From the NCBI GenBank assembly GCA_000934665.2, contig JYFJ02001606.1, positions 1 to 64,000 of the forward strand: a stretch of DNA of 64,000 bases, written 5' to 3'. Source of the stretch: Catajapyx aquilonaris. Taxonomy: Eukaryota. Both the position numbers and the translations under genes were made by a program. The notes below the pieces were generated by a model. The model made no database searches, was not told where the DNA came from, and worked only from the letters and a program-made list of their open reading frames with translations. Shown here piece by piece: positions 22,784 through 48,185 of this stretch. How positions within the stretch are numbered: the stretch's first letter is position 1; each line of letters starts with the position of its first letter.

Positions 22784-22798
22784 TTTTCTGGTCTTCTC

Positions 22799-23198: not shown

Positions 23199-25104
23199 AT
23201 GTGGTCGACGCTGGTTCTTCCGACGCTGCTGGTCGTCGGCTGTGTTGCGACCGACGTTCAGTATTCTCCTTCTTCATCATACTCAGCATCTTATTCCTCC
23301 ATGTCTCCATCTCCATCGTACTACACACCAAGCAACAGCAACGCAGCATACGACACATACCAGTCCTCTAACTACGCGTACCAACAGCAGGCACAGCAAC
23401 AGCCGTCACCAAATTACGGTGCACCTCAACGACGACCAGAAAGGTTGGTGTCACCTACCAAATCGGGTTGGTCCGACGCTGGTGGTGCTGCTGAAGATGA
23501 ATGGACCAACTCGGAGGAAGGAACATCTTGGAGAAATGCAAACAAGAGACCTACCGATTACGACACGTCTTCAACCGGACACAAATCCAGCGGACTTAGC
23601 AAAGATGGAGAGTCGTTTGTGGACGTAAGTTTATTTTTTGGGGACAAATATCCCGTCATATGTGCAATTAGTCAATTACCATAAGTGATAAAAATAACAA
23701 CATCATTAGACATACCCTTGCTTGGCCATTGACTAATTAATAGCCAAACAAACAAGTTAATGGCAATATTTGGCCATGTTCTTGCCTTTTAATGACGATC
23801 AATATTGATGTATTTGGCAATAGAGATATTTCACTGTCTACGGGAACGGAAAGCAAGGCAACTTGGGCCCCCCTCAGTCCGTCTGCACGTGTACGTTTGG
23901 TCACGTCGACAGCCAGCAGGGTCACGTAGGCCTTAGGGTACGTGCAAAAATATATCAGTTAATTGACGTAATAATTGTAACATCGAAAAGGCTTAGGGTG
24001 GCCCAAAGTATGCCGTGAAAATACCGCCAGTTTTGCATAAACTGATTGAGTAACACTGTGACAATATGATTTTGACTAATTCATTTTGCAGACCTGATCA
24101 CAATCACATGGGAATGATTTCGAGGGGTTTGAATATTCCATTACTCCTAATGGAATTCGGTTCCTTTTAAGCATTTCTCTAGAGACGGAACTCTATTGAT
24201 CTATCAGAAAAATTTGACTTGACCGTTACACGTCAAGGACTATGTCGAGCACAATGCCTAACATACGACATATATGACACTGATTTTTTTCGGAAATGAT
24301 TCAAATAGGCTCAAATTATTCCCTTAGGTCACATACGACATTTGCTCACTTTCTACTCAAAATCTATACCAGGTATATGTATATACAAGTATCTCTACAT
24401 ATATAAAACATAAAGTTTGTTAGTATGTATGTCACGGCTACCTAACCCACTTTCAGACCATTGAGAGTCCTGAAATTTGGCACACCGTGCCTCTGACTCA
24501 GGGAAAAGTCCGAAAACTGCAGTTTTTTTTAGTGCAAATAAATTTATTTTTTATTTTATATTTATAGAAATATCTGCCCATGATAGCCATGGGCGTGGGC
24601 ATCCCTCTTCTGGTCATGTTCGTACTGATGATGATGAGCTCAGTGTTCGACGACTCAGGGATGTCCGGCTCAGGTGGACACTGGGACAAGCGAGAGGCGT
24701 CCCCACTGGGCCTCCTCCTGTCCCGGACAATCCAGTGGGACCTGTCCAGAATATCCAGAGCCATTGCTTCAGAAGGAATCTGCTCTGAACGTATTCTCTG
24801 CAGACTTGGAGCTGCAGCAAAGCCCTATCAAGCCACTCGAGGACTTATCAAGTTAGTGAGAGAGACCTACTTTCTCTTTGCTTCTCCCGGATTATACCTG
24901 TTTCTATAAAGGAGGGGGCTCAATGTTTCGTTTTTTAACAATTTTTATTTCCTCTTTGTGCGCAGGATTTTGGACTATGTTCTACCGCAAACGCTTCTGA
25001 AGCAGTTGAACGCGTTCAAGAAAAGCGTGGTTTCTGATGACGACAAGTGCGACAAGTACACGTGCGACAAGAGTTTTCTGCTCAAGATGATGAATTTGAA
25101 CTGA
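23199..25104 (+). CDS. Paralogue A: uncharacterised signal-peptide protein with Ser/Tyr/Gln-rich region, hydrophobic segment and C-terminal 4-Cys domain (~282 aa)
   Basis: Exons 23199-23624, 24568-24851, 24966-25104 are in frame. Signal peptide MWSTLVLPTLLVVGCVA; hydrophobic IAMGVGIPLLVMFVLMMMSSV; dibasic DKR; CSERILCRLG...CDKYTC. Confidence 0.88.
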
Positions 25105-27183
25105 ACTGCCAGAAAATGTAAAGTGTGTTAAAAAAAAGTAATTTGGCAACAACTTTAAAATGTCAACACAGCTTCACCAGAGTGTTTCGATGATATGTGA
25201 ATATATTTATTTAGAACCGAGCTTGACTCATATAAGTCACGCTCCAGAGATAAATGTGCAAGCATCCGGAATGAAACTAACAGGAGGTTCTGGATCAGTC
25301 TGCGCGTCAACACCCGCCAAGCTGTTTATACAACGTTATAATATGCACATTATGATAATATTAAAACCAACAAAACAAATCCGCTTGGACATTTTAAATA
25401 AAAGTTTTCACACACTGTATGCCATGCAGTTCAGATTGTATTGTTACATCTACTGTCGAAATAAAATAAAATCGGATTGCACAATGTACAGTTCTTGGTA
25501 TGTCAGTGGAGGAAGTACATTCTGTATAGAAAATTGTGTCACAGCAGGGTACCGATGCAAAAGATGAATGTCAGGGCGTGGTGCATAACCTGCCAATGAA
25601 CAGTACAGGTCACCAATGGCACACCTTTTTTCCCCCCTTCATATGCATTATGAAGACCTTTTTGGCAGACATTCATAACTTTGAAGCAGTTGGTGCAGTA
25701 CAGTACAAGTGGCAGCAGACGGTAAGTTAATTTTAAACCTATTTTACTCTACCGCTTATGAAAAACAATAGCAAAAAAACCTGTAGCAAAACATCAGTAG
25801 CAAGAAAACAAAATAATGATATAAGTCGTATGTAACCAAAGATATTGTGTCCTATTGCATTATACGAGATTGTTCGTTTATATAGCTACAATAATAATAT
25901 GATGCAATTTCTTCAGAGGCATGTTTCTATCACGCAGTTAATAATTTATCCTTGCAATTCCAGTAGGGGTTATCGGTGCGGTTATGCGATTGCAAATGAC
26001 GTCTCCAATAAACGGAAACTTAGTTATAATCGAGGTCAATAACACGGAACAGGCTTTCTCGATGATGACAACAGGACTACAACTGTTGTGGTCTCGAAGA
26101 GTCAGACTGACCTTGTTGTGTCAGTCAATTTGCATAAGTTTGTTACATTCAATGTCCCTACAGGTTTAAAGTACGAGGGCGATATGTAAATAAAAATTAT
26201 GATACACTAAAAATAGCTATAGTCGCTACTTTTAAAAATATACGAGGAAAAAATAATCAACTGTTAGCAAAAATTTCAAACTTATCTTGAGCAAGTATCG
26301 TTGCTGCTTTTAAATTGGTTGCTGTACTGAACAATCCGTAACTTCGTGTTACTGCTCCTAAGTGTACTGTACCTTTTAAAAAGCTCATAAATATTCAAAT
26401 CTTGTTGCAAAAAAGGCCATAAACTGGCATGGTCTCTTTAATACGCTGCAGTGTTCCACAATGGCCAAGTGCATGCCTCATACTCGTACATAACCGTAAT
26501 TTTTGCAATGTTGCTATAGCAATTTGGCAAGCTGTCGTGGCTCCGCACGTTAGAGCAATATGTTAGACACTGCGAGTAAAGAGACTAGGCAAAGCGTGAA
26601 ACCCGTTTAAATGTATGAGCACTTGCACCTGTAGTATGACGTCAGCATAGAATAATTGCCATGATAATTACAAAAACAAACGTCATTTTGCAAATTTGCA
26701 TGAGCTTCACTTTGTGTGTTTCAAACATTGAGTATATCCTGGCAGATATGCGCCATTTTCACTGATTTAAATGAACTATGCTGTCTTATTAGGTGACGGA
26801 AGTGTCGTAGGGTGTGTCAGCTCATGTGGCATTTCATTAATAGGCTACTAATTAACACAATAACGAGGTTTATGACATCTACATGAAGTGATTATGCGGT
26901 GTCCAGTACTGCCACCTAATATATTGTCAGCAAAGTTTCATGTCTAAAAACTTGGGCAATGGTTCCGGTGCCTTGAGTTTCCAGGGACATAATTTTGCTC
27001 ATCATCGACAATCCTGGACAACAGTTAGTGGGTCGTCGGGTTGACATGTCTCATGGGTGCGGTCACGCCTGGTGTTTATGTGCCTGCCAAGTGTGCGCCT
27101 CATTTAAATAGAATGAACGTTCCAGAATGTCATTAAGAGGGACAGGGGGCACTCACCGAGACAGTCTTTTTGCAGTTGTCGAC

Positions 27184-28216
27184 ATGAAGACGCCCAAAGC
27201 AGCGGTCGGTTTGGTCCTCCTTGGTACCACAGTAGTCCAAGGGTCTTTCTTGCCATCCAAGAGCGATGCATACCTCAACAGCATCAGCAACCAGCAGCCT
27301 ATTGACCCCTACCACTACGACGACCATCACCACCAGTATCAGCACCAGCAACAGCAACAGCACCAGCACCAGTACCAGCTGCAGAAGGGTGCCAGTGCGA
27401 CAGCCCCTCCGACGACCCTGACAGGATATGGACCACCGTCGATGCCTCAGCCTCATCAGGAAGAGACATGGTACGGAAAGGTTGCTTCCAGACTTGGGGT
27501 CAGTCCAATGGTGCCCATCTTCCTGCTGCCTCTGATCACCGTCGCTGGATTGATGATGGTGCATGCGCCGACAACAGAGGTACCGGTACAATCCGATGGT
27601 AACGAGCAGGAGAAGATATTGGTCCAGGCACAGCTGCAACAACACAGCCAGATTCGACGACGACGTCAGTTAGGTACCGTATGACTATTTTACTGTTTCA
27701 AAGTGTAGAAAGTGACGTCACATGCACTAATCTGACATCCTAATTAATTATTAAATTAAATTATGGTCACGACGTCACAGTTCCAAATCGGCAAGGGTTA
27801 CGTCACGCACAATTAAAATGGCGATCGTGACGTCATGTATTACCAAAATGGGGCTCATTACAGATTACGCAGTGAATGACATAGAACCATACGACTCAGA
27901 GGAAGACTGCGTGCACCGCATTGTGTGCGAGATAGGAGAGTTGGCTTATGGCATACGAGGGACGAACTTCTTGGTGAGGTGAGTGAGCATACCTGGTGCA
28001 TGACTCGCTTGGTTTGTACCCTCCTGACCTTCTGAGCGAACTGACCTGAATAGTCTCGTCCCCTGTGCTTCTTCCAGATTGGTGGCCAAATGGGCTCCCG
28101 CGTCGCTCATGCCCTACGTGGAGACATTTGCGCGTTCCTCCACATCTACAGAAGGCGGCGGCTGCCATAAAATCTTCTGCGCCTTCATGCCTGCAAGAAA
28201 CACCGAACTCATGTAA
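27184..28216 (+). CDS. Paralogue B: uncharacterised signal-peptide protein with His/Gln repeats, hydrophobic segment and C-terminal 4-Cys domain (~247 aa)
   Basis: Exons 27184-27673, 27864-27978, 28078-28216 are in frame. Signal peptide MKTPKAAVGLVLLGTTVVQG; hydrophobic MVPIFLLPLITVAGLMMV; RRRR; CVHRIVCEIG...CHKIFC. TATA-like TTTAAATA near 27103, TCATT Inr-like near 27130 and AATAAA near 28283. Confidence 0.87.
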
Positions 28217-31200
28217 TCCACAGAAAACCCAACTATAATTTATTTTTTCATATTTATTCAACTATTTATTTCTGCCACTGTCAATAAAGAGCCAGTAATT
28301 CACTCTCTTTCTTATTCTCCCAAAATTACGCCAGAAATGTGAGCTAAGTCTGTGCCTCTGTTTGTCCGCGGTGAGTCATCAGTATAGTGTGCAGAGAGGT
28401 AGGATGCGCCATCTATGTACGACACTGTCGAGGAGACAAAGTTTTGGTAAAGGGTTCAAGTAATAAACAAACATTTTAGGTGACATCTGAAGCTGTTCAA
28501 AGGTTAATCATAAGCAGCTTTGTCACACCTGAGTTGGAACACAAGATGCTCCCATAGCAACGAAATTGCAAGTCTATTGGACTGTGCATGATCGGGATTA
28601 CTCTCACTCTCTCACAGACTGTTTTTATTCTGCCAAGTCAGACCTAATGTTCATTCATTCACCTGCTGCGGATGTTACTGTAAAGCAGCTCACGAGTGCA
28701 TCCTTTTTGTCATGGTGGGTTGGTCATGGTATTGTCATTCAGGTGGGGAAAAAGACGAGAGAGAACCTCCCAAGTACTTGCTGCACGACACAATATAAGT
28801 GTCGCAAAGTGGGGCAAAAAGCTGATGCCGTTGCATGATTTAAAGGCAAGAGGAAACAACACAGAATAAAACTTCCTTCCAAAAACGTTTTCCCTGTCCT
28901 TGACCCAAAGGTTTTTTTTCCACCCTGTATTTTCTCTCCTGTTCCTTTTAATGGATACCACGAAAAAAAAGTACCGTTAATCGAGGTCCATTCGTAGGTC
29001 AATATAAGAGAGCTCGGGATGGAAAAATCTATAGGTTTCCCATTAAATTGAACTTAACACACTCTAGTAAAAAAGTAATTTTCAAGATTATGGACTTGAC
29101 CTTTTAATGTTGATCGGCCCGGTCCGTTTACGTCGTTTCAACGTGTGTGACAATATGTCACTTTTCAAGTGTGCCAGTGACCTGTACTGCACAGTATGAA
29201 AACCAGGTGAGGCCATTAGCACACTTTTGTATGGACCAGATGGGAACATTTTCGGGGGCAAATGTATTTTTTAAAGGAATGGAAAGGGAAGATTGGACGA
29301 AAGAGAAGGTGTCCCACAAATACTTTTGAAAATAATAATTAATTGCTTAATTTACAGTGAAGCCATTCTTTCCCAAACGGTACGGTCTTTCAATAACTTT
29401 TGTTGTACAAAATGGAACCTGCTAAGAATGGAAAATATTTGGAGTGCCAGATTTCAGGAAATTTTAATTTGCTGAATTATTATTTGTTAATTTCTTAATA
29501 TAATTACTGATAACTTACCTTACTATTATTTGCTTATAACTAAGACTCATTTCATAACTTACTTAAATATTCTTGTGTCATCAATTTATTGCATTATGTT
29601 GTCTATAACTCTTAGCACTATTAAATTATATTTCTTTGCTGTTATTTAGGTTATTATTAACATTGTTGGTGACATTGCCCTTATTTCTTCTTTTAACATT
29701 TAATATATTTGTTTATTGACATGTTTATTAAATTATTTCAAAAGTGCATTTATATCCGTTTATTTCCCACTTGATCCCACACAGTTGCTCCAGTTAGACA
29801 GGAAAGGAACGGTTCGGCAAAAACTGGTCTCAGCCCGTCTGACATGATAATCACCATCATTACCAAGCCTATTCATGTGACGTCAGGTTCTACCCATCCC
29901 AATTCACACACACACATAACCTTTGGATTATGCAGAGTATGATGTGGGGTGAGGGAAACAAGAAAATGTTGAACCCTGTCTATACCACCAGCAGGTATAA
30001 GTTTAACGATGCAAAACTTTGCGCCTAATTATTTCCTGCCTCAAGAAGAGAGAAGTCCCAGCACGAAACCGAACCTTGGCCTATTTTCCACAGTATACCA
30101 AAGCAATTGGCTTTCAAAGTTTCCAAGGCATGTTAAAACCGCCTAGTGACAAAAGGGCCTCTCCCCCATTTTGACGAGTCGATTTTCAAGTAGGCCATGG
30201 AACTGCTGCCTGTCCTCCAAACAAACTATCCTCCGATGCTGCTACTTGCCAGTGAGCCTTTTAACTAGTCGGGATAGTAAACTTTCCTGCGGGAATCCGC
30301 AACACCGGTGGAAGGAAGAAGGAGAACAGGATGCACAACTTCCAAATGCCTGACTGCTGTTTGACTCACCTGCTACCATTTACATGCGACTTGATTGCCT
30401 CCATTCAGAGCGACATCAAACCCCTTCAAGCAGTGCCTCTCGCAAACAGACAAGTTCAAACAGAATTAAGTGTGGAATTAAATGGTCGCATTATTTTTTT
30501 TGTGAGGTTTTCCTGAAATGGTGACCTTATTGGACAGGTTCCACCATTTTGATACACTCCTGACATCCTCAGCACAGTTACTGTGTTGTACTTCCTGCTG
30601 TGCTAAAGGTCGAAAGGTGAATTAATATATGGACAGACTATCGCATTCCATTGGAAGACCTGAAATTTTAAAATGGCCCGAGTCCAATAAGAATGATTGT
30701 GAAATGTGAAGCTTTGTAGGTTTTTTCCTGACCACCCTGTATATAATTAGTTAAAAATTGCGGAGAAAATACGAGCAATTCATGTGTAACTCTCGTAGAA
30801 ATTCTACTTCTTCTATGTTACCGCGTATTTATGATATTGCATGTTATGCCCTCCCGTCAAGACCCTTGGTCTTACTTAGCACTGGATGGAAAATAAATAA
30901 ATAAAATGAATAGGATATTGCATGTTATGGTACTGGTCAGTTAATGGTCAAATTATTGAATGTAACGATTAGTGAGTTATCTCAACAGGGCTTCGATATC
31001 GGTATATTCAGGGACAATAAACTTTTAAATAAAATGCTCCTGTAAAGGGAAAACAATAAATGAAAACAATAAATAAAAACGCTAAATAAATAATATTGAA
31101 AATCACACATAAAATAAACACAGGGAAAGCTGCTCAACTGTATATTTTCATTACACTTGTATATAAATAATAACGGTACATCACATAATACAATAATAAT

Positions 31201-31846
31201 AAGAGTATTGTCTCAGCCTCTTTCTCTCTCCAGAGAAAGACGAATCAAAGTGGACAACACATTGATCGCCTGGGATTGAGGTCTGGTCACCGGGAATGCT
31301 TCTCCCTTGTTTGCATTGCACGCTACACATACGCTGACCCACATATACACACACGCTTTTGTACTAGTAATACTAAAATAGTCATGTCCAGTCTCGATAC
31401 GAAGGCTACATGCCTATCGCATGTCGACACTGGACTGATGACGGCCCTATCAAGGATTTCTTGCTTCCAAAAGTAATATTGGCATCCCTGATAAATCATA
31501 TTCCTATAAATCATAATGAAACGGTAATAATAAATGAATGGTAAAGTCATTTTCTTTATTTCCAGTTGAAGTTCATTAAAATCGTGAAAACAGCCAGTTT
31601 ATTTTGATATGAAATGTCAGCTTCGATTTCATTTGATAAATTAATGGCAGGGGTACCAATATTACATATTAATAAAGATTGTCCTTTTAACATTAATTAA
31701 TCAGTCTTAACGCTCCAAGTGCGGATGTTGGTCACATCCAATACTATAAACTACACATATGAGGTATTTGCGTTGTATAGATTATTTTAAATAAAAGTTT
31801 ATGAATACACAATAAAAAAATAAATGGATGACGAAAGATGGTGAAA

Positions 31847-32858
31847 TCAGTTCTTCTTGCTGTACTTTTCGATGGCGTCTGTCACCAAGGTTGTCAGACG
31901 CGCAATACGCTCAGGGGTTGCCACCTCCTTCAAAGCTCGAGCATTTACCTGTAGGTCAGAAAACGCATCGTCTCATGAATTTTATTTTATTTTCTTTGCT
32001 GTTTCTCGTGAACACTCCACTAACTAGCCCACAAAACTTGCGTGAGTTGCGCCACGTTACGGCTGCCAGGATTCACACACCCTTTACGAGTTTACGGTAA
32101 CGTGGCACACATGAGAAAAGAACCATTGCTTTAAGATGTATAGATTAGATACGAGCCCCCCATACTTAAGCTGGACTTGTCATTTACACGGCAAGGAGTG
32201 AACTGGACCCGGTCCACTAAATTTGGTTCTAGGAACAGTGACCCAGAGACACAACCCTCGACATGAATCGTTCCTAACCTAACCTAACTTGCTTTTCTCG
32301 TTTCCATGTGAATGACCCATTGAGATGAAATTTCTGTCGATCAGTGATCTATCCTTAGGACGTCATAACTATCCCGTTCTTGCCCACACTAACGAGAAAG
32401 GAACTGACCTGGACCAAGTTCGGATACAGGCCGATGACCACTCCTACCACGACGATCACTCCAATGACGGCCACGGCCAAGGCGATGTCAGTCATGCCCC
32501 ATCTGCTCCAGGACGAACCCAGGTCAAATCCATTGCCAAAAGTGGAAGTGCTCCAGCTATTAGCACTACCAGGATAGCCATTGGCATCTTTGACCGGATA
32601 GTAATAATAGTAGTATCCTTGTTGACCTGCTGCGTTTTGAGCGGCCGTGGTTGAGCTGTAGCCAAAGTCTTTGTCTGCAGCCTGTTGGGGCTGCTGGGGC
32701 TGCTGGGGACTGAAGCCCATGGGCGAGTTGGGACCAGGGGCGGCCCCGGGTTGGGGTGAGGATGGGGAGAACTGTTGGGCTGGGGATTGGTTCTGGAAGT
32801 TCTCTCCGGATGCCCAGGATAGGAGGGCAACCAGTACGACGACAAAAAGAGTCTTCAT
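31847..32858 (-). CDS. Paralogue C: uncharacterised signal-peptide protein with Gln/Pro-rich region, GYYYYYYPV motif, TM segment and short helical tail (~183 aa, no Cys domain)
   Basis: Exons 32409-32858 and 31847-31948 (phase 0). Signal peptide MKTLFVVVLVALLSWASG; QGYYYYYYPVK; TM IALAVAVIGVIVVVGVVIGL; tail VNARALKEVATPERIARLTTLVTDAIEKYSKKN*. The ATG is immediately preceded by an acceptor (CCAG|C ATG). Confidence 0.88.
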
Positions 32859-33402
32859 GCTGGTGGTGAAAGCACCAAATAAAAAATTTAAAATGTTACC
32901 AAATAATTTTACATAAAATTTTGCTAAGATAACAGCTGCATGACACGTACACACAATTTAAATATCGCCCCAAAAACAAGTCTGACGATGGAAAACTCCA
33001 TATCTCTCAAGATTGGAAGCTCAAAGTCCGTCACCAAAATGTCACAATAATATCGGGCAAATTACAAGGACCAGGGTTCGAAAAATTGGCAACGAAATAT
33101 TGTACACCTACATTTTTTTAATCCCCCCAAAAATGTGAAGCACTCATTGAGGGTACCGCTAGTTATGCAAGCATTTCATTGCAAAAAAATGGCACAGTCA
33201 ACCTATTCACAATGTTCCGCTACATGCAGAAATCCTCCCTGCCCATTATATTGACTTCCACTCCCAAGCCCATTCTTATGCGAATATTGCTTTATCAGTT
33301 TCCTGCGAATCTTTTTTCAGACTATGACCTAACCCAATTCCAGTACACAACCCCACTGATAATCACTATACCACACCATACAAAGTACAACAAAAAAATT
33401 GG

Positions 33403-33491
33403 GCTTACCTTTCAGAGTATGGAGACTACTGGAGGCTCGGATGAAACAGGGCTAACTGAGAGGTATGGAGGGACAACCCAGGGTTTTTCTA
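33403..33491 (-). promoter_or_regulatory. Candidate promoter and non-coding first exon of paralogue C
   Basis: Minus-strand Inr TCAGTT (33459-33454), TATA-like TAGAAAAA about 30 nt upstream and donor AAG|GTAAGC at 33408. These match the acceptor just before the ATG at 32858. Confidence 0.55.
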
Positions 33492-34234
33492 CCCTCGGAA
33501 TTTTTTGAGGGTTGGGTAAGGTGAGGTGGGTAAGGTGGGGGGTGATGAATAAGAAGGGGAGAGCTGACCATGAACCTTGAGGGTTCCTCTTGTTTACCAC
33601 CCTGCGCAATCTTTTCTACCTGCTGGAGTTGGCCTTCGCCTTTCTGTTCTGGAGAGTGACAAAAAACCTTCTAGGAGACTCCAAAAGCATGCTTTCAGAG
33701 AAGAGGAAAATAAAAGGAACATTGTGCTGTCCCTTGGCCAATAACAATCTGGGTGCCGGGACAACTGAGATGGTCAGATGAGGTCAATGTCACGACAAAA
33801 AATTGGTATAGAGTATTCTACCAATGTAACTAGATTTCAACATTTTTCAAGTGTTCCTTGCCGGTGTCCTATTTATAATTATCATGGGAATACAAATACA
33901 TCCATCAAATTTAAAATTTAAACAAGTTTTTAGATAACCCAAATCAGAGATTTGACCTAGAGAAACTACAGGTTTGATTGTGATCAAATGTTCCAATATT
34001 TCTTAATATTCTATCGTGCTGGGCTTGGGCTCTTAATTGGGTGTTGAAACAATTAATTTCTAGAATTGGCTTCATGTATGATGTTGCCATCAGTTGTTTT
34101 TTTGTCACAATAAGTACAGCGTTGGATTGAAAGTGACTTAATCAAATACAGTAATATAGTGTTTGGCTCAATATCAGTTATTTTTAGCGCAAGTTGATTT
34201 TGTTCTTATTGGCTTTTTATAATTTGTTATTTTA

Positions 34235-34280
34235 TTGAGACTATTGCTTATCACTTTCAAGTGATAAGCAATAATCTCAA
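34235..34280. repeat. 46-bp palindrome
   Basis: TTGAGACTATTGCTTATCACTT-TC-AAGTGATAAGCAATAATCTCAA; arms match 21/22. Confidence 0.85.
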
Positions 34281-35997
34281 GCGTGGAAATTCACATAGTT
34301 TTGTTACTAATTCAATAAAATTATGAAACATTGGCACTACATTTTTGTAATCACACATACACTAGTTTTAGGCTCAATTTTTCTCAATTTTTGTCACATT
34401 TTCTAGCCGATTGTTGACATTTCAAGTGAAGAACCCTTCTCAGTTGTGACCTTTTCTTTTTCTAAAATCACTCATTTGCTTTTGATAATCACTTCCAAAC
34501 TTTTTGAGCATACATTCTGTTGGAAATGTTTTAGTCAACATTGTAGTTAGACAGGAAATGTCCATCATTATCATTTAATACATCCTAATTTCCGCAGACA
34601 GGTATCATGACTGATGTCAGTGCTTTTGCTACATACTCGCACATGTACACCGTCATTCATAAGGTAATAACTAGGCCACCTTCGGAACTTAAACACCTGA
34701 TGCACCCAAAGGCGTTAATGCGGAAATCACGGAGTCACGAAATAAACAACGGCATTTTTTTTCTCCCCTCTCGTAACATGTTCTCTTGATTCATTATACG
34801 GTTATTACTATTGACGTGCTTGCCTGTGTAATGCAGGGCAATGAAAACATTTTAAAAAAGCATTTCGAAAATAACTTGCCACGCTCCCCATTGTGCAAAA
34901 ATGCGAGCTCACCTTGTAATTGGCTCATTAGTCCGCCAATTATACTCTAACATATATTTTTATTAGCCTATAGCCTAGGACACTCTCATTGTACTGAAAA
35001 GCAAAGCGGATGTTAGCAAAAAATATGTTCAGCATTTTATCACAACAACCGGACCCTTTACACAGTTTTAATTTACCAGACCCTTTGTGTTTCTAAATCC
35101 GAGTGACTATCTGGACATGGGAAAACAGTTTCCATCCCAAAAGTGATATCAAAAATTAATCTGGGCTCCAGGCGATATCGAGCGTGTTTGCTTCAAAAGA
35201 CTATACAGTAGGAAAGAAAATGAAGCGTATAATCACATTAATTTCATGTTACGCCGCCACCAGCACTATCATTATCTGAATGGCAAATCAACTAGAATTA
35301 CTACCAATGACTATTCATCCTCAATAAATGGCTATCAATAAATAGAAGTATGACGCATTTTCCAAGTAATATCCAAATTCTATTTTCAGCTATTGATGTA
35401 TTATAGACACATATTTTTGCAATTAATGATTGTGACATAAATGCTACAATTTATTGCAAAACCTGTTGCCATATTGCTCCAATGACCCACTGAACGTTTA
35501 CCCCACACACCCGTTTTTTTTCTTCCAAAATTCAGAAGAAGAAAAAAAAATTACCGTTCACCTTCTGACGAAATATGGCCACATATAGTGAGTCGTATTT
35601 TGGCAACCAAATAGCCTTGAAATCTCGCACATTTTCTCTCTACCACCTTTTGGTCAAGGCCGCATCGCGAGGGAAGTGACCTCCATTCTAGGTCACGGGC
35701 AAGTTCCGTCCTCTCACCACCAGGGATTAAATTTTTTTGTTGTTGTTGTTGTCTTCCTTAGAACATGCCTCGAAGCCTTCCGGGAGGCGGAGAGATATGA
35801 AACACCTTCATAGAAAATTGTTATATGCATGTTGAGGGAAGATGACTGGTTGGTGGAGCTATGGCTATTCCGTAAAATTCGTTTTCTAGAGCGACTCCTT
35901 TCCACGTGGGTGCAAGGAAAAAACCTCTTTGGAGGAGAGGTGTAAGGAGGGTGGGAGGTGGGGGTGGATATGTAGGAGGGGTCAAAAAACCGGTGCT

Positions 35998-36096
35998 TAT
36001 AAAACAACCTGAGAGACCTCGCGCACGGCCAGTTAAGGTCAAAACCTTGTGCCTAGTTGGTCGGATTTTGTTACATATCAGAGGGCAAAGGTAAGT
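35998..36096 (+). promoter_or_regulatory. Candidate TATA/Inr promoter and short non-coding first exon (probably of paralogue D)
   Basis: TATAAAA at 35998-36004, Inr-like CCAGTT at 36029-36034 and consensus donor AAG|GTAAGT at 36091. No ATG lies in the putative exon. Linkage to the acceptor at 47100 is inferred. Confidence 0.55.
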
Positions 36097-39000
36097 CTTC
36101 TTATTTACTAGTTTGAGAGAAAATATCTGAGTGATCTTCTATGGTGGGTTGACTTGGGAGGACCATTTGAGTCATGTTGAGCGGTCGTCCCTGACCTTCT
36201 TGGGGGGTGTCCCTTTTTTTTGCTTTCATTTCTTACCTGTCTAATTTCCCTCTCACCTTCCCCTCTCAGCTATTTTTAGAGTAGGACTAACGGGATGTTC
36301 GGAGATTACATAATGTTTTTGTTGGGAGGAACCCTTAGGAGAAAGGATTGCGACTGAATGGGAGTTTGGTTTTTTTGGAGTGATAGAGGAATTTTATTAA
36401 TTAACAATAGGAGCGTAAATAATTCGACGAGAAACTATTTTCTTGGGTAATGTTAAGGACTAGTTACATTTGTTAAAAATAATTCTCAGGAGAATGAGTG
36501 GAAATGAATTTTTTTTATTACTTAGATTTTCTAAAGTGTCCAAGAATTTTTATCAATTTAAAATCTTCACGAGGGTACTTGTTCATACATGTTGTATACA
36601 TAATGTAGCTTCCACGAGAATGAACAACTTCACATATTAGTCATGAACTTCTGCGTTAATCATGATTATTGTTGTCAACATATATCTACTCGTATATATT
36701 AAGCTTAACTGCATAATCGTCTTAAATACATTTTTAAAATTTATTGTATACCGGTACGGATTATTGGAAGAGGTGATTATTCATCAAGCTCGTGGCCCAA
36801 TTGTACTGTACCAAAGTAAAATTTTACAAATGTGGCTAGTACAGTATATCTAATTACATAAACTGAAACAATACTTTAATTTGCGTTACCGGTAATGCTA
36901 CTAGGTCCATGTCAATTCGCGTTATTATTGTAACCAGAATGAACCCCAACCATTTGAAAAATAAGGTACGTTTTCATTACCAAATTTGGAGGCACTTTAA
37001 AATATTAATTGCTTAGGCTTTAAACTAGTACACTTACAGCACATGTTTGACCAAAGCGTTATAAAAATATAGCTAGTTTTATATTCAAACATTCGTGCAT
37101 TTAATGTTTTTAAGAGTACTTACGTATACTAAACTTAACCAAATCACATCACTCGCGTTAAAGTCACTTTAAAAACTATCACATCTAATATATTCATTAT
37201 TCATAGTCACTACCAAGAATGGAATTTAAATAAAAACATTCGTTAGATGTTTGACAAAATCGTGAAAAATATAGATAAATCTACATTCATCGTTAATATA
37301 TTGTACTGGTATTAAAAAGTATTCTCGAAAATTCGAACCACACTAGAATAGACCGCAATTTAAGTCCGAGCTGCACGTCGTGATTTATGCAACTCAATTA
37401 ATCCAAAGGCACAGTGCGTCCATCATGGCGCAAAATACGAATCGTCACTTCCTTTTCCTTGAGCAAGCCTGTATGGCCCAGATTAAAAAGTTTGTAATTA
37501 ACGTACAACTCAGGTGGTTAAATTCGCCCCTAAATAATTGTGCAAAAATTCTGATTGCTCGTGGGAGGTCAGACCTTGCACTTTTTTTTCCCTACAGTTC
37601 GAAGCACTCTTTTCCTGTCGTGCCGACAACAATAATCCTCAACAACTTAATGGTCGCCATTAGCATGTATCCGAGCCGTAAGGTCACGACGATTTGTTTT
37701 TCATGGCCAATTTCTTCCGTATACCAAACGGCCAAGGAATGTCTATGACCTGTAGAAAAAACAAAAATCAAACGGTAACTTCCCCCAATAAATAATGCAT
37801 GAGACGGAAGACGGAAAAGTTCTTTTGCCAAGTGTACCATATTCATAAAAACTTTCTTTTCGAAACAATGCAAAATACCGGTTCTTATTTGTAACGAACT
37901 CTCAATTTATGTGGTGTTAAATAGTTGGTGTGTAGTAGTTAATATGATGTACAGAGAGTGGGTTGAATCGAAACCCCCCTCCCACGCCACGTCGATATCT
38001 ATCATAAAGCTCCGATATCATGGGTTAGAATCAGATAGGATCACGTGGGATGATCCGGGGGAATTTACGGCCATCTTGTCAAAGGTTTTTAAAAAACTGA
38101 CTCCCACGCAGAAAAATATCGCTTTTCGACTGTGGGCGGTTGGGTGGATAACTTACACGGATTATTAAAATAAGCTTGATTAGGTTCTGTGAGGTATTAT
38201 GTGGCAGCATCACATTATTAGCGGTTTGTGCGGGGGAGATTGGCGAAAAATCGGTACCTGCAATATGAAGCTAGAAAATAATAATAGTTTCTAAATAAGT
38301 CACTTAGGTAGAGATTCACGACGTAAAAGCGAGAAAAATAATTGTCAGATTCTGTATACATTTTTCCGTACATAACAGAAGCCAGTTTCGTATATATGAG
38401 CCAAAATTGACAGAAATTCTATGATTAGGTTCATTTTTAAAAATTTGCAATTAATATGGGTTCATATAAACGGGCATTAAATCATCAATTTCAGTCTTAT
38501 GCTCTTTTGCTAATATTGAATGTAATTACTGCACATGCTGCCGCCAAAATGATGCAGTGATTATTCACATAGGTTCGGTTGTATGAACATTAAATTATTA
38601 AGCCGAACACATATCTCCGATTGTGGTTAGGCATCGGAATACATAACCAGAGATTTTTAGTTCAATTAATTGGGGAATTGGTGAGCTTTTCGACCAATTC
38701 TGTCACCATACAGGGGATGTCACTGACATCTCGATCATAATGCAGTATAATATTCAATGCTAATTATTAGCATAACAATAGTACAGCATAATATCTGACA
38801 GTCAATGTCACATAAAGCATTATTATTATTATGATCATCGAGGCATGTTTGTACCACGAATTAGCTTCCATTTATCGTATTCTAAAATCAACAGTTTTTT
38901 TTACTCCAAATCTCAAAGGAAGATTCGACTCCTGTGAGAGGTTTTACTTACCAAATAGAAAAAAAGTACTCAAAAAGCGAGACTGTTCCACGCGAAGCAA

Positions 39001-40589
39001 TGTTTGATTGACGAGAAAGTGTGAGATCTCTCCTTGTAGTGATGAGATCAATTTCAGATCATCCTGCTAAGGGAGAGATCTTTAGTGAAACCTCACGTGA
39101 GCATCCATCGCAAATAAGGAAAGCTCAAATGAAAGTTATTAACAAGAATATTTATTAGAACAAGATTAATCAGTGCGAATAGCCTGGAACTCTATAACAA
39201 ATTTTTTTAAATGTGGCTTCTCACGAATTAAAAATTAATATATTCTTATCGCACATTCCGCTGTACCTTTTGTTTCATATATTTAGTTTCAAGGCCATGC
39301 TTTGTGAATGCGTGCGCCTAATCAATATCCTGTTCATAGTAACCGAGGAATTTGCACAATTCCTAGCGAAAAAGGTTAAATCAGCCTGATAGCCCTAAAT
39401 CCTCATAAAGGTTTATTATTCGTGGCTGATCATGACAACTAAATGCAATATGGCGAAAGAGTGGCATTCATGCAATTTTAAAATAAATCACGTTACGCAA
39501 AAACACAATTGATTATACGTAAAGTGATATGAATAGAAGTGTCCTTGATTACGAGTGCGAGTTTGAACTGTAACACACAATTCGCACCTAAATGCAATCA
39601 ATCAAGGTTTCAGCACAAACCAAAACGTGATGTATAATGTGAAAAAGCATACCACGTTGTTTTTATTATTTAAAAAGTCAAACAGTAGAAAAATAGCCAC
39701 ACTGTTCAACAGGCACTTTAAACTAACAACTAACGTGTAGTAGACACTTTCATTAAAATCTGAAAATTTAACATGCCTCATATGTGCAATAATGCGCAAA
39801 TATTTTCCAGGCGCAAGTGACAATTAATTAGGTTTGCCTTTATACAATATTATTAGCACAATCCGGTGTAAAATTGTGGTTCGTTTAAAATGGCGAATCA
39901 GCCTCATGTTACAATTTTTCCCCCCTGACATGTAACAATGGTAAGTACGTGCAATCTTGTGTCCAATAAGCCATGGCCTGAAGACACGCTCGCCCAACCA
40001 CCTTGGCTTGTTAGCTAAACCAAAGGCGGCAAACGACTCCCCAGAAAAATTCACACCCAATAAACCCACGAAAAAAAAAGCGTTCCTTATTCTTCCAACA
40101 CAATGGAATGTTTCTAACAGTATCTCGGCATTCAGGTCGTCATCCTAGCAAAACAAGAGTCATACCCATACAGTCCAAGCAGAAAGATCTCTCGTGATGC
40201 CAAAATAATCTTGACGTGATCTTATTTTTTTCTCTCTCTCATAAGACTTACATAAGCGTGAAGATCTAGTTGGTGCTTGGAGGTGTGACAAAGGGTCGTA
40301 GCCAGAATGATGACAGGACACGAGAAGGTGTGAGATATTACAGCACACTTGTCCAAGGGGGCTGAAAATTGGGCTCGTTTTGCTTGGGCCTTTTGCGGTG
40401 GTTTTACTGTACATATATGGCCTGTTTTAATTACTTGTTTTAATGGACTCGGTTTGTTACATAGTTGTGGGTGGCGGATTTATTACCGTCGTACTACACC
40501 ACTATTGATTATCTGTTAAATCAGAGTACGTGATATTGGCTTTCAGTATTTGTAAAATAAGATACTGAATGAACCGATACTAGCGCGTC

Positions 40590-40628
40590 ATTATCATTAT
40601 TATCATTATCGTTATAATTATAATTATA

Positions 40629-40674
<46 letters not shown>
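40590..40674. repeat. (TTA)n microsatellite with degenerate 5' part
   Basis: Direct reading of the trinucleotide run. Confidence 0.95.
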
Positions 40675-40675
<1 letters not shown>

Positions 40676-43230
40676 TGCTGGTGTTACAATGTGTATGTTA
40701 ACAAAAATAAAATTATAAATTTCAGCCAGTTGATTAATTTGTAGTAACCAGCCACTATGCTCAATAATTTAGTGGGCAATTAATTGTTGTAAAAACGTCG
40801 TTTGAGTAATATTAATAAAGCATTCCATCGGGGCATAAATTATGTTGGACTTTTTTCTAATGTGTGGCAATTCCTAGAATGGCAAATTTAATAACTGATA
40901 GAGTGGAAAATGTTTCCAAAATTGTTATTGGTGGTTTTCAATAATAGGGATAAGAAAAATTAACTCGATGAATTGGTATGTATTTCACGAAAACGTCACG
41001 TTATTTCATATTCCCCCCCCCCCCCCNCCAAATGAGGTTTAAAGCCTCAAACATATGAAGTATGACATTGCCAAGGTCGTACCATTGCAGAGCTCGATGA
41101 TATGAAATGTGCTCAATATGAAAACATTCGAGTAATGATGGCTGTAGGAGCGTAAAATTTTGGTAGACATGGAAATAATATTGGAGAAGAAAGAGTAGGC
41201 CTACATACTAAAACATGCTGGTGAGCTTTTAAAAATCAAGCCAATATAATTGCAAATTAATCGAATACTACAAGTTTTAATGTGGCCAAAATTCTATGAG
41301 CCCTCCTGCCTCCAAAATATAACTGACGTCCTTTCATAGCATATGCTGCTAATTACGACATGAAACAAACTTTGCTTATAATGTAATGATAACAAGGTGC
41401 TCCCATGCAACAGGAATAATGCTGGTTGCGTGATGGTATAGTAAATGGAAACAACTTGTTCAGTTTGTTACTAGCTTTTTGGTAAAATATTGTTGAAAAC
41501 CTTCCATAACAATGCTCTACAGGCCGTTAAAAAAAATTCGATCAATCATGAAAGAGGGCATAACCTGAGCTAAATAGTATAATTGAATCAGAGGCAAAAT
41601 TAATGAACTGACTTACATGGGCAGCAAAATTCAAGCAAAGAGCCACATGTATCTGGCGTCTTATGCTCTTAAACTTAATCACATTGACAGCACGCACCAA
41701 AATGTGACCAAAATTCATAAATGAAAATATGAATGATCACCAAAATTCTTGAATAAGTAAGAGAAACTTAGAATAAACGAGCGATAAATCCATAACAGGA
41801 AGACAAATATGCACCTGTTAATCGGTAAATAATATAAAATACATGAAATACGCAAATTTCACTTAAAGCGTAAATAATATACATAATAATTAATAAAATA
41901 TATAAAAATAATTGATACCTCCTTAACAGGCAGGTAAATGTAATATGCTGTATAGTAGGTCTAATGGAAAAGGTTTTTATTATTATGAAATGCACAAATT
42001 GTTAAATAATAATTAAATCAAATAGAACAGTATACAAAATGTCCAATTAATGTTAACTTACAAACGATGCAAGTAATGTAAAAATAATAATACGAAAATG
42101 TGATGCCATTGCAATCAAATCACCTCGATAGCAACTCGTGACAGATTACTGGCCCCGCAAATTTCAATTACACATCAATTGCCTGATGATCATGCGAAAA
42201 TTGTCTTATACTCTGGAGCATCACGCACGACCCCCGAGTGTATTGGTCACGACATATCAGTACCTTAAAACGACATGTAGGTCGGCATATCCCCCCACAC
42301 TTGATTTCAGACAACTTCTCTCCCACCCACCCTCCTTCCCTTTGCCTTCCTTCATCATCCTCGCCCGTGACATGCTTTTCTCGTTTCCCCGGCTGGCTCC
42401 ATGCAGCACGGAACACGAGCCAGCCCAGGAAGAAGAAAAGAAGGAGAGAAAAAGTTGGTCGCCGTACGTCGACTCGGACTACCTCTTTGACCTGCAGTCA
42501 AGGCAATCTTATCCGTCTGACCTACTAGGGAAGGGACCTACTAACTTAGCTTGGGTCGAGAGCGTGCCTCGAAATCCAAACGTGGGCCAACCAACCAACA
42601 TGGCCGGGGATTCAACAGAACAATAGATTGGAAAACAAAATAATATTCTGCATGACTATTGCTTTGTAACAAGTTGCTATAGCTAGGGGAGCGGGGAAAA
42701 AAACAATTGGGTGAAAATATGTGTCAACAGCCGGATGACCTTTCTGTAATCACAGAACTTTGGTCAGACTCTAAGGGGTTAGGCTTGGGTCTCGGTCGTT
42801 GTTTTGCAATGAGTCCTATTTTGATTGTGATCGCGAAATTTTTAAATGCAAATAGCAAAACAAGTCGCGCGTTGAAACTACTGCATTTATATGAACCACT
42901 GCCTAATAACACAAAAGGATTACAGATTTTTTAATAATTTAATGTTATTTTGTGTACAGTTTTGAATATTAAATTATGTCTAATCTGTATTAATAACATC
43001 AAGAAATATAGCAACAAAAAAGAAAGTGACAGCCATAAATAAATGGAAGGAATATCAATCTATGTAATTAATAAACAAATAGATTACGACGAATCATTAA
43101 TAGAATTCGAGTTAATAGAACACATAAATATATTAGTATAAGTACAGTAACTCATAGACTATTTGAAAGGGTTAGTCAAAATTAGAATTTTTCAATACAG
43201 TACTCGAAATCGTCAAATTAGATTGCATTT

Positions 43231-43346
43231 TGGACATTTTTGACGAATAATTGAAGGGCTCCATGAACGAAGGGGGTAGCTAAATAGTACAGTGTTAGTT
43301 ACCCCCTTCCTTCATGGAGTCCTTCAATTCTTCCTGATAATGTCCA
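43231..43346. repeat. Long inverted repeat / hairpin
   Basis: Core arms 43249-43283 and 43295-43329 match 32/35 with an 11-nt loop. Outer TGGACATT/AATGTCCA extends the stem. Confidence 0.85.
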
Positions 43347-46300
43347 CATTGTAATTAAAAATGATACCGGTACTTAATAATATCTTGCATCAATATTAAT
43401 TTTCTTGCAAATTTGCTAGCTAATTTCAGAATCTCACCCATTTTAGTACTTTAAATAAATTTGCGCACAAAATTTTGCTCGTCATACTCCATAACTGGCG
43501 TGCAAACGTGAACCGAAATTAACTTCTCCGCGCTGAAGCCGAGGGAGACAACAATGAGTTGCGAAACAATTTCCCCCCCACTACACATCCCAATACAAAC
43601 TGTCGCCTCCGTCCTAAACTTGTTGATATTTACGCAGTTGTTACCCTTTACCTCCCAACATAATCCCAGACCAACACCAGCTCGAAATAATAAAAAAGTG
43701 ACTAACGTGCCGCATAAAATCTGCATGTTTTCCCTACATAGCTGTCTCTCTAAAAAAAAATTCCCCCAACTCTAATTTTTTCCATTCCAATTTGAGATAC
43801 GTCCTTCCACACACATACACACACACGGGGATGGAGAAAAAAAAACTCCGGAGCTTTAGTGTGTTACATTTCGTGCGTCGTTGACCCAGTTGGCAGCTTT
43901 GTGATGGCGGAACTTCCGTCGGGAATTTACCCCTAGGCGCCAATCCGGAAAGGCGCAGCCCTCTTTTACAGGACTCGTCTTCTCTCTAAACCTCTTTCAC
44001 TGGGTATATCCTCAACCCACCAAATCCTCTATACCACAACAGGTTTCTCCACCTGGGCAGGTGTGCGCCTCAGATTTTTATTCCGTTCTCAAAGAAAGAG
44101 GGGCAAACATGCATAGGAGGAATACAGTAATTCCGTTGCATAATCGCTCTAGGAATCTAACAGGGAATTCAGATGGTTAAAAAAACATGTGAGTTAAAGT
44201 TGGGTCTGTAAATTGTTGGTTAGCAACGGAAATAATTTGTATCCTGGCAGGTAGGCAATTGTCAGGGTTGCATAAATTGCAGGATGAGTGCGAAATTATG
44301 CATATTATTGGGAGTCATTTGCATACACAGAAATTAAGTGGAAAAATGTATTATAAATGGAAAAAACGATTAAGTTTTAATTGAAGATGAGTAAAATCAC
44401 AGTTGTCTGCTATAGGATGAATTATTTAGTAAGTCGAAAATCCATTACATTCCGAGATCCGCACAAAGAGATGGATTTTACGTCCTCTTGAGAATAAGCT
44501 ACCATTGATAGAGCGATTCATTAGTGGGGATTTTCTCATAAGCTTTCCGTAGTGAAGATAGAGCGGCAGATAATTCTAGTAAAAGCTTACTGGAGTACAG
44601 TACTGTACATAAAGTGTGTGATCTAAGGATTTTCTTTTAAAAAATTGCAAAAATAAACCGCAAAGGCAGATGTGCACAAGTCACTTTAATTAGGGCAGTT
44701 GCAACACAAATGAAATGGAATGCTACACTGAATTGTTAAAAAATGAATAAAATATGCAAATCTCAAAAATAGCTTACTAATGACATCTGAAGATTGGCGG
44801 AAATTGCTCATAAATCATTCCTAGTATAAAGCGGACATGAGTGACAGGAACGTGCTCAACCCAGTGTTTTTGGATTGACAACACGTTGTGAATAGACCAG
44901 TGTGTCATCCTATGCGACGGAAGCAATTAGTCGTCGATGATATTGCAAAAATAGGAGCTCAGTGAAAATGAATTAAATGCACGGCCTGTACACAAAATTA
45001 GCATGAAATCGTAATTATTTTATGCCTTTCAAATAACATTCTTGTACAGCATGCTATGGATTTTCGCAATATGTTCAAAGCTGATATAGCTGGAATAAAA
45101 CACTGTACAGTAGGCTACGTGTCATATTATCCAGGCACGGGGGGCCCTGCACTTGCCACCAACCAAAAAGAACTTTTATGCAAATTTTCAACTGCAGGTC
45201 TCTCCTCTAAATATTTTTTTTTATCCATGACGCAAACGTGACCGCATTATTTTTCAGTCAAAGGGTAAACGGACACAATTGCGGTTATTGTTGCCTTTTA
45301 ATTTCGGTTCATTCAACGTTCTGCAAATTCGAAATGACAAAGCCACGCATCAATCAATTACATGTCAACACGGAGCACACCCAACGCCCAAATAGTACGA
45401 CAAAAAAAAGGTGCTCCACTTACGTAATTACTGAACCTGCAAAATTGACACATGCTCTACTTTTGAAGACACCTATTCGACTAATTGTGATGAGGGAGTC
45501 CATAAACTGGACAAAAAAATACAATAACAATGCGGCATAACGGATCTTTCTTCTAGATATGTTTTTCTGGGAGACAATTCGAGGAGACAATGGTTGAAAA
45601 ATTTGAACAAAACAGGTGTCCACTTTCTAGCCAGGATATATCTACTTCTTTCCAATGGGTTTTGACCATGGCGTCAGAATACAAAATACCAAGGGGTGTT
45701 GCTTACAAGGGGTCATGGCCAAGCACAGGTACCGTTATTTTACCTAAATGCCCCAAAGGTGTGGGGACCTAAAGAAAAAAAAAGGTGCAGGTAGAAGAGG
45801 GGTGGAAAAGGAAAAAAAGAGGAATTTTTGAAGGTTGGGTAGGTGGGTCCAGTTCCCTTTTTGATTGTTGCCAAGAAGGCAGGTTGCCCAATAGGAATGG
45901 TCTCAAAAAGACTGGGTTGGTGGCCCAGAAGCTGGTTTTAAAAAAATGTTTCAACCGTTAGACAAACCTGTCATTAGTCAGATTTTTGTTTGTGTCGTGA
46001 ATGTGAATGTGATAAAATGTCACAGCTCGGAAGGAAAATTAAGCGTGACAATGAGAAGCATAAACTAGGCTAATAGTATTATTAAAACCACAGCTACCAA
46101 TGACAGCATGCCAGTTTTTTTTCTTCAAAAATCACCATATCATCAGTCAATCATTTGAAAGGGAGTGTCAGTGATGAAGCATATAACTACAAATACATAA
46201 TTATGCTTACAAATTTTGTATTTTTTGTGTAAAAATCACAAAACAAACTCGTGTGTAACATGACAATTATTTGTATTAATTAATACAGTACAAACCACAT

Positions 46301-47100
46301 GTAAATGTATTAACATTAGTATTCATTGTTGGTGAGTCCACAATTCACTAGTGATTTGTGCGCATTATTGGTCCATATTTATTCGCAAAAATCTTTTCTT
46401 CAAAAACCAAGTGCTAATGGCCGGAGAAAGTCACCGTTCCAACACCGGTTCAATTCATCAGAAAAACCGTTGTCCATTTGCTCTTACCCACGATTAGCAC
46501 CTGTTTAAATCACAAGTGCAAAGTGCTCCGGGGCCCCTTTTCCCGGAATTGCGAATTTGCATTGCAGATGACACCTTCCGCGAAATTTAATGAGTACACG
46601 ACAGCTTCTGTATGTGTACCCTACATTAAAGCCCTTGTTCCAGTTGAAAAGTCCGCGTGTCACTTTTGCAAATTAAGCTGCTTATTTTTTCGCAGTTTAG
46701 ATGGCACCAAAATTACCTTCTTTTATTAGATCATGTATAGAATTGGCTAGGCGTGACTTTGTCCCTACATGCGATGACTCATCACCTAGGTGCATGCAGT
46801 TACTGCAGTCGCCACGGGGAGCGGTAGTGTGCATAGGGCGCCACCTTGTAGTAGCATATTGTACTACGTCCAAGTCGCACAAATTGTTTCCTACACTACC
46901 TTACAGGCGACCCTGCGATGTTGCCAAGAGGCTACCGGTATGAATTTGGCCCCTGAGGAGTAACTGTGGCAGCGTTGTTGTCTTAACAATGGACTTGCGC
47001 GAGTGTGGGTGCGCACTCGGTTGCGCTCGTAAAAAATTCATCTATAATGTAGATAAATTCAATGGAGTTATAACTCTGTGTTTATTGCTCATCTTTTCAG

Positions 47101-48185
47101 ATGATGACTCGGACAGCGCCTGTGGCGCTCTTGACCCTCCTGGTGACCCTGGTGACCTCCACACCCAACGGGTCGACGCATCCTCAAGTGATACCCCAGG
47201 CAGCCCAGGTGGTACCATCTGTTGTGGACACTCGAGGGGTGCCACAGACGGCCCAGAGCAGGGAGGCACCCGCATACACCGGAGGAGGATCCGGATTCGG
47301 AGGGTTCAGCGGTGGCGGCTCAGGAGGTCACAGCGGGGGCGGAGGCGGAGGTCACGGTGGAGGTCACGGCGGTGGTGACTACGGACAAGTGTCGCAACCG
47401 CAAGGAAACACAGGGTCAGTACCTGGCGATGGAAGTGTCGCAGGCTGTGTCATCATCTCTTGTGATTTCTCAGGTACTATTACTACTACTACCCGGTGGC
47501 CCAAGAGAAGGAACCTGCAGTGCACCACTCATCTCACGAATCATTCGGAATTGACCCCTGGGGCATAGTGGCCATGTTGGCCATCTGTGGTCTCCTCATG
47601 GGTGGAGCCTACTTCATGATGCCAGGCTGGTCGTGGGCGCCAGGTCACCAGGACGTGTACTACCGAGCCTTCCAGACAGCCGGACCTTCCCTGATCGGCA
47701 TGGAAAAGGACGACTTCAAGACTCTGACCGCGTTGGTGCTCACAGCTATCGAAGGGGAACAGTGCATGGAACGTCTCGCATGCGATGCAGGAAAGCTTGT
47801 CAAGAAGGTCAAGAGGGCCGAGACGTTCCTCAGGTATTAAAATGACACAAATTATGTAAAAGGTCGCACCAGTTGGGCTGTACCGTTGCACTTATTTCCA
47901 ACGCTACGTTTGGGAGAAAACAAAATGGCCGCCTTTTGCGACATTGCCAAAGCTCAGAGAGTTATTGTGTTCATTTACAATTTTTTTTACAAAAATATGA
48001 TATTTTAGGCATATCTGGGTTAAAGACAACAACGTCCACGATTTTAACTAATATTTGCGATGTTTTTCAGGCTGATGGAGGATTTCGCGCCGAATTCATT
48101 CGCGGCCAGCATCAAGTCTCTCCGAACCGGAATCAAATCGCCAGATCAATGCAGGAACGTCAATTGTCAAAGAAGAAGGAAGTAA
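47101..48185 (+). CDS. Paralogue D: uncharacterised signal-peptide protein with Gly/His-rich region, GYYYYYYPV motif, TM segment and C-terminal 4-Cys domain (~262 aa)
   Basis: Exons 47101-47414, 47474-47833, 48071-48185 are in frame (two phase-2 introns). Signal peptide MMTRTAPVALLTLLVTLVTS; GGGSGGHSGGGGGGHGGGHGGG; GYYYYYYPVAQ; TM WGIVAMLAICGLLMGGAYFMM; KTLTALVLTAIEGEQCMERLACDAG...CRNVNC. The ATG directly follows a TTTTCAG acceptor. Confidence 0.88.

Follow-up and report, generated by a model that had tools for sequence, protein, structure and literature searches.

Based on predicted splicing and comparison with database proteins, four genes that we call A, B, C and D are members of an unnamed, conserved pancrustacean family; they form an old cluster in which three genes are complete and one is truncated. 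They lie between positions 23,199 and 48,185 of a 64,000-nucleotide stretch of animal DNA from Catajapyx aquilonaris (contig JYFJ02001606.1, positions 1 to 64,000; hereafter, the window). A sequence-only reading had proposed four highly divergent paralogues at this place, and all four are real: models with GT-AG junctions and short introns, predicted from the DNA, translate without stops for A (+ strand, 23199-25104, 282 residues), B (+ strand, 27184-28216, 244 residues), C (- strand, 32858-31847, 183 residues), and D (+ strand, 47101-48185, 262 residues). The G+C content at their third codon positions is 0.57 to 0.65, and that of the window overall is about 0.40.

The family is defined by a C-terminal domain of about 80 residues with five helices and four cysteines, which in C is reduced to helix 1. 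The motifs quoted in the sequence-only reading are all found in the four models, including the pattern CxxRxxCxxG...P...Cx4C common to A, B, and D; a six-frame search of the whole window found its first part, CxxRxxCxxG, 3 times, compared with a mean of 0.21 (maximum, 1) in 100 block shuffles. The domains of A, B, and D are 19 to 24% identical to one another, and all three are interrupted by a phase-2 intron exactly 17 codons past the second cysteine (Cys2+17). This intron, a proline seven residues later, and the final Cx4C are present in 5/5 members in the genome, namely, A, B, D, and the unlinked paralogues at loci L002 (1201-1930) and L014 (1189-1887), and both insect-type loci with junctions read (2/2) have all three features as well. 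The counts are minima for the genome. The L002 model has no signal peptide and is probably short of a first exon, and no convincing neighbour was found in about 33 kb around L002 or in the whole 7.4-kb contig of L014. Nine further genome matches (L016-L020, L023, L080, L082, and L083) were rejected as spurious. A family profile of 19 database domains, built without window sequences or orthologues of D, scores D at 68.5 bits, A at 48.3 bits, and B at 36.3 bits, with no more than 9.9 bits in 1200 shuffles.

How, then, does C belong? On the 19-domain profile C scores 4.4 bits, as its coding sequence ends right before Cys1, the first cysteine. C keeps a tyrosine motif, the hydrophobic segment, and helix 1, and on a 15-sequence profile of these three elements it scores 35.5 bits, a value reached by 0/1000 shuffles in each of three controls (maxima of 13.7, 29.0, and 21.2); A and B score 0.4 and 1.0. 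D is therefore the link between C and the other two genes, A and B, as had been claimed. A profile search of the minus strand of the window gave no further domain exon for C, and no C-like truncated relative was found among the retrieved proteins. The tyrosine motif of C and D is in frame, conserved in relatives, and present in the springtail, insect, and shrimp types. The bare pattern YYYYYP matched 55 times genome-wide versus 94 times for a reversed control, and 28 of the 30 loci inspected were TAT/TAC repeats or chance. In the genome, TAT microsatellites, often followed by a shared repeat element, yield most YYYYYP-like matches; a TAT microsatellite also occupies positions 40590-40688 of the window.

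The four genes had been called orphans, a description that does not survive a wider profile search, which retrieved 61 relatives among 5068 candidates. The relatives of the four genes include a springtail orthologue of D and proteins of crustaceans and insects. A first homologue search, of proteins of 210 to 2000 residues only, had yielded 0/123 candidates, and a search of 1.84 billion representative proteins gave 16 matches, two of which (P0001 and P0006) were repeat artefacts and were dropped. The relatives named via clusters belong to Folsomia candida, Gryllus, a firefly, Penaeus, Daphnia, and Panulirus, and a cricket query (13/115 candidates) added termites, a bush cricket, a cockroach, thrips, a locust, and stick insects. 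Every named protein among the 61 is “uncharacterised” or “hypothetical,” none of the 61 carries a precomputed Pfam domain, and one thrips record bears the automatic name “repetitive proline-rich cell wall protein.” All named relatives are from arthropods, and no Drosophila member was retrieved in the family searches. No function was found described for any of the pancrustacean relatives, and a literature search on DM4/DM12, the gene identifiers, and the tyrosine motif, which covered few subscription journals, found no description of the family.

The springtail orthologue of D is Folsomia candida XP_021960970 (LOC110856745), which aligns with D end to end and thereby confirms its exon structure; the domain of D is 63% identical to that of Folsomia versus 32% to that of Gryllus. 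The Folsomia protein, Gryllus GBIM_13018, Zootermopsis LOC110831262, Daphnia carinata LOC130694942, Penaeus vannamei LOC113817882, and Panulirus XP_071546795 all share the layout, helix 1, CxxRxxC(E/D)xG, the proline, and Cx4C. A and B lie on long branches and are at best 29% and 24% identical to any retrieved pancrustacean relative. With an insect-type query, the highest identity in the genome is 40%, compared with 61 to 79% between insect members and the cricket protein; the best odorant-receptor family match in the genome also reaches only 29 bits, and the genome is thus probably not that of a winged insect. The proposal that the family is old is borne out by the low identity among A, B, and D, their shared intron, and the closer kinship of D to the springtail protein than to A or B. 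In a tree of 29 domains, 16 of the 26 inner branches are unresolved; a constraint that places A, B, and D in a single clade is rejected (P = 0.014 in the approximately unbiased test, a test weakened by long branches), as would be expected if the duplications that gave rise to these three genes predated the split from springtails. As to tandem copies elsewhere, the locus numbers of two Penaeus vannamei members, P0012 and P0030, are nine apart (LOC113817882 and LOC113817891), which hints at a tandem arrangement. No second family member was present in 11 metagenome loci of 1 to 18 kb, which are too short for synteny; one bacterial-looking locus, L069, was set aside.

The sequence-only reading likened the cysteine core to that of DM4/DM12 proteins (PF07841). 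A remote kinship appears likely from profile alignment and language-model features; membership is not supported, as no family member reaches the Pfam gathering cutoff of 22 bits. A Pfam scan of the window exons and of the full-length D orthologues P0005 and P0024 gave no PF07841 match at an expectation value (E) of ≤10, and 4/76 rows of the family alignment matched weakly (best E, 0.013; 20.9 bits corresponds to an E of 6e-4). The genome holds 5 PF07841 matches, 3 over the cutoff and none (0/5) on this contig. In hhalign, with a template of 6 sequences only, the family aligns with DM4/DM12 over 35 columns with a local probability of 87% and a score of 32.9, compared with no more than 14.2 in 40 column shuffles; the global mode also exceeds the 40 column shuffles, and a 5-sequence DM4/DM12 template gives 67% over 17 columns. 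In the Atlas, by language-model features, the D exon falls nearest to unnamed arthropod clusters (0.90), followed by a DM4_12 cluster (0.87); for a D orthologue, the top family-bearing match is PF07841, and the ten best such matches all belong to this family or its clan (scores of ≤0.85), which we take as a lead only; the structure rows do not exceed a template modeling (TM) score of 0.35.

The two groups share four cysteines, with the CxxRxxC core following a helix, which A, B, and D have and C lacks. They differ in that the window family has an invariant glycine and proline, sub-cutoff scores, and a last cysteine pair spaced as Cx4C (5/5 members) versus Cx6C in 6 comparison genes (the PF07841-type genes and the Osiris-type gene of the genome). 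They also differ in the intron, which lies at Cys2+17 in the family; 5 of the 6 comparison genes have a phase-2 intron in the helix region past the core, at Cys2+21 to +27, and homology between these introns is thus putative. For the Osiris-type gene, the acceptor was chosen among three. Based on these comparisons, the family is best called DM4/DM12-like, a sister of DM4/DM12 rather than a member of it. At least five DM4/DM12-type genes (L007, L008, L009, L010, and L011) lie elsewhere in the genome, four of them with a phase-2 intron past the CxxRxxC helix.

A resemblance to the insect Osiris cluster had also been suggested, and it holds as an analogy only: the layout of a putative signal peptide plus a putative transmembrane segment is similar, and other hallmarks are absent. 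Osiris proteins are described as having five features, a signal peptide, a two-Cys region, DUF1676, a putative transmembrane segment, and AQxLAY (PMC3284338). The putative transmembrane segment is present in A to D. No cysteine pair lies between the signal peptide and the hydrophobic segment of any of the four, AQxLAY is absent from their translations as read by eye, and a PF07898 (DUF1676) scan gave no match in the window exons and 2 genome matches on other contigs. The closest parallels are Osi17 and Osi24, which are described as carrying DM4_12 near the C terminus (PMC12825958) and as the only two in the Osiris family to show weak matches in springtails and crustaceans (PMC3284338); another source states that Osiris homologues were not found in bristletails, crustaceans, or other arthropods (PMC11151929). 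Osi17 and Osi24 resemble the window genes in combining a signal peptide, a membrane segment, and a C-terminal DM4/DM12-type domain and in being clustered, with orthologue-specific variable regions (PMC12825958, PMC3284338). They differ in the two-Cys region, DUF1676, and AQxLAY, and the genome's own Osi17/24-type gene is on another contig. That gene is solitary, with exons on the minus strand at L073:183-776, L072:5170-6177, and L072:3682-4089 (G000:C135, about 48.7 to 55.8 kb); it encodes DUF1676 (40 bits), followed by an Osiris-like membrane segment and DM4/DM12-type cysteines read by eye, and the membrane-segment and cysteine exons gave no Pfam match.

The anatomy of the four proteins largely follows the earlier description. 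Each has a start that resembles a signal peptide by eye, with a 19-residue window of ≥1.6 only in A and C, and each has one hydrophobic segment of 19 to 25 residues (19-residue Kyte-Doolittle values of 2.13 to 3.14). Gene A encodes its signal peptide and S/Y/Q/P-rich region (S, 26%; Y, 14%; Q, 13%; P, 13%) in exon 1 (23199-23624, + strand, phase-0 GT donor); the hydrophobic segment, a KR site, helix 1, and CSERILC (about 24781-24801) in exon 2 (24568-24851), which ends at the conserved phase-2 intron; and the conserved proline, CDKYTC, and the stop in exon 3 (24966-25104). In B (+ strand), exon 1 (27184-27673, phase-1 donor) holds the signal peptide, the Q/H/P-rich region (Q, 23%; P, 12%; H, 12%), the hydrophobic segment, and RRRR; exon 2 (27873-27978) holds a degenerate helix 1 and CVHRIVC (about 27908-27928) and ends at the same intron; and exon 3 (28078-28216) holds the proline, CHKIFC, and the stop. 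C, on the minus strand, has the signal peptide, a Q/P/A-rich region (Q, 23%; P, 16%; A, 15%), GYYYYYYPV (about 32591-32617), and the hydrophobic segment in exon 1 (32409-32858), with helix 1 (LTTLVTDAIE) and a stop, without the cysteine domain, in exon 2 (31847-31948). D (+ strand) begins with a signal peptide, an AQSR motif common to the springtail orthologue, and a G-rich region (exon 1, 47101-47414, phase-2 donor, 59-nucleotide intron) and continues with a tyrosine run plus PV, the hydrophobic segment, LTALVLTAIE, and CMERLAC (about 47763-47783) in exon 2 (47474-47833), which ends at the conserved phase-2 intron, and with the proline, CRNVNC, and the stop in exon 3 (48071-48185). The region of D had been labeled G/H; the label is inapt, as it is 52% G and only 6% H, and the broader observation that the compositions differ among the four is correct.

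These differing compositions had been attributed to swapping of low-complexity modules. Taken with the lack of a close relative of A or B among those retrieved, they could suggest lineage-specific orphans diversified by placing new modules onto a common tail, a scenario that we regard as highly improbable. D aligns end to end with its springtail orthologue, such that its G-rich region lies in place against a G/A/Y-rich region of the Folsomia protein with the flanking motifs conserved; the first intron differs in position and in phase from gene to gene (phases 0, 1, 0, and 2 in A to D), and these introns do not flank the low-complexity stretches; and relatives span crustaceans and insects. Divergence in place explains the data better than swapping.

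Taken together, we propose as the best explanation, and with slightly less than an even chance of being right, that A to D are an ancient tandem set from this unnamed family of single-pass secretory-pathway proteins of cuticle-secreting epithelia. In this model, the signal peptide would be cleaved and the hydrophobic segment would act as a stop-transfer anchor; a cleaved signal peptide plus one span implies a type I topology with the domain in the cytosol, and such a protein might reside in the secretory pathway or the apical membrane of cells that secrete cuticle. With its outer part, rich in Y/G/Q/P/H, each paralogue could contact nascent cuticle or lumenal cargo of a different kind, and the cytosolic helical tail, common to the set, may serve as an adaptor or shape the membrane, a role that the DM4/DM12 tail might likewise have in Osi17 and Osi24; C would be a D-type paralogue with a reduced tail. 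In agreement with this topology, 17/25 proteins carry more net positive charge behind the hydrophobic segment than ahead of it, and a C-terminal tag on Osi23 is treated as cytoplasmic (10.1101/2024.08.20.608717). An AlphaFold2 model of a D orthologue (76 rows) shows a disordered N terminus, a single helix where the hydrophobic segment lies, and five domain helices, with a predicted local distance difference test score of 70 to 78 over residues 191 to 260 and a predicted TM score of only 0.35. Structure comparison with the D-orthologue models gave nothing clear: the best Foldseek E was 0.28, and a fold search of 48,161 chains gave best Z scores of 5.4 (root mean square deviation [rmsd], 5.2; 114 aligned) and 4.8 (rmsd, 4.0; 71 aligned). 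No Protein Data Bank sequence matched at an E of ≤1, and the homodimer prediction for the domain scored 0.11.

Several observations weigh against this proposal, and some of them point to a specific alternative, in which the four-cysteine domain is extracellular with two disulfides, the segment dips into the membrane or is a pro-segment, the helical domain is freed by a furin-type cleavage and serves, once secreted, as a ligand or part of the cuticle, and C is an anchor without a payload. The four invariant cysteines in two pairs fit disulfides, and disulfides need a lumenal location. The motif R-x-K/R-R occurs between segment and domain in 6/25 proteins versus 0.33 expected (about four independent lineages), to which RRRR in B and KR in A may be added; it is missing from the other 19/25, including D and its orthologues, and basic clusters just past a membrane segment are also ordinary positive-inside signals. 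The charge trend fails in 8/25 proteins, with the basic cluster of the shrimp group preceding the segment. Three Daphnia models have no signal peptide by eye. In favor of the alternative, members from Daphnia show a hydrophobic run of 36 residues with lysines inside it; against it, most segments in the family are of single-span length. (The Daphnia proteins in question are P0013, P0026, and P0027.) Also against the alternative, N-glycosylation sequons after the segment are no more frequent than by chance (11 observed, 11.2 expected). On balance, we tentatively favor the type I topology, at a little under even chances, and consider the lumenal, shed domain rather unlikely. Two further cautions concern kinship: the alignment with DM4/DM12 is confident over its 35 columns only, with 51% in global mode, and the 19-domain profile test is only partly independent, as the profiles that first brought up the database relatives had been seeded with exons of the window.

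The cuticle part of our proposal also needs weighing. Osi17/Osi24 knockdown is reported to cause soft ovipositors, deformed wings, and hatching failure (PMC12825958), and both genes are described as lethal in Drosophila (PMC11151929). We infer a cuticle role for A to D because of these Osi17/24 phenotypes, the arthropod range of the named relatives, and the Y/G/Q/P/H-rich compositions. Such compositions are typical of cuticular proteins. Against this, the cuticle link is borrowed from Osi17 and Osi24, proteins that also carry DUF1676, and nothing in the analysis ties the genes to moulting. Could the same family, with the same membrane anatomy, serve a gland, gut, gill, or sensillum support cells or act as a general apical-membrane organizer? 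Desiccate is described as a 261-residue single-pass protein of epidermal and accessory cells and a proposed channel organizer (PMC4661605); by description only, Drosophila Desiccate (CG14686) resembles the window proteins in size, single pass, and epidermal expression and differs in its SH2- and PDZ-binding motifs. We consider a noncuticular job of this kind distinctly unlikely, given that the named relatives are confined to arthropods and that the nearest characterized carriers of a related domain show cuticle phenotypes. More speculatively, a pre-insect chassis of signal peptide, variable outer region, anchor, and four-cysteine tail might have given rise to Osiris when DUF1676 replaced the low-complexity region. 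Osi17 and Osi24 would then keep the ancestral tail, C would show the tail-loss step of most Osiris genes, and the cluster would be a syntenic cuticle-patterning forerunner or parallel to the Osiris cluster among non-insect pancrustaceans; we regard this scenario as a long shot.

The cluster is flanked by a threonine-dehydratase-like gene (- strand, about 19.8 to 22.8 kb) and by a reprolysin-propeptide exon at 61.9 kb. The former (19804-22798, with PALP and ACT domains) is head to head with A, and its start region lies at least about 400 bases from A; the latter belongs to an ADAMTS-like metalloprotease gene (61874-64000, + strand, and L006:2165-2698), a later exon of which encodes a Thr/Ser-rich stretch followed by an RVKR site. 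A nucleotide-sugar transporter gene lies at 16268-18233 (+ strand; PF04142, 106 bits, one exon). Within the cluster, a 14-kb interval (32859-47100) separates the head-to-head start codons of C and D, and a family profile search of this interval gave no significant match (best, 8.0 bits). The ATGs of both C and D are preceded by acceptor-like sequences, and thus, noncoding first exons of both genes probably lie inside the interval.

The present outcome is a family definition, to which a function is attached by analogy. Four apparent orphans become part of a definable, conserved, and unannotated family of arthropod membrane proteins with a diagnostic motif and intron, and the family has members in laboratory animals, namely, Folsomia, Daphnia, and Gryllus. 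Should the kinship with the DM4/DM12 tail of Osi17 and Osi24 prove true, the family would provide a handle on the role of this domain and on the origin of the insect Osiris cuticle-patterning genes.

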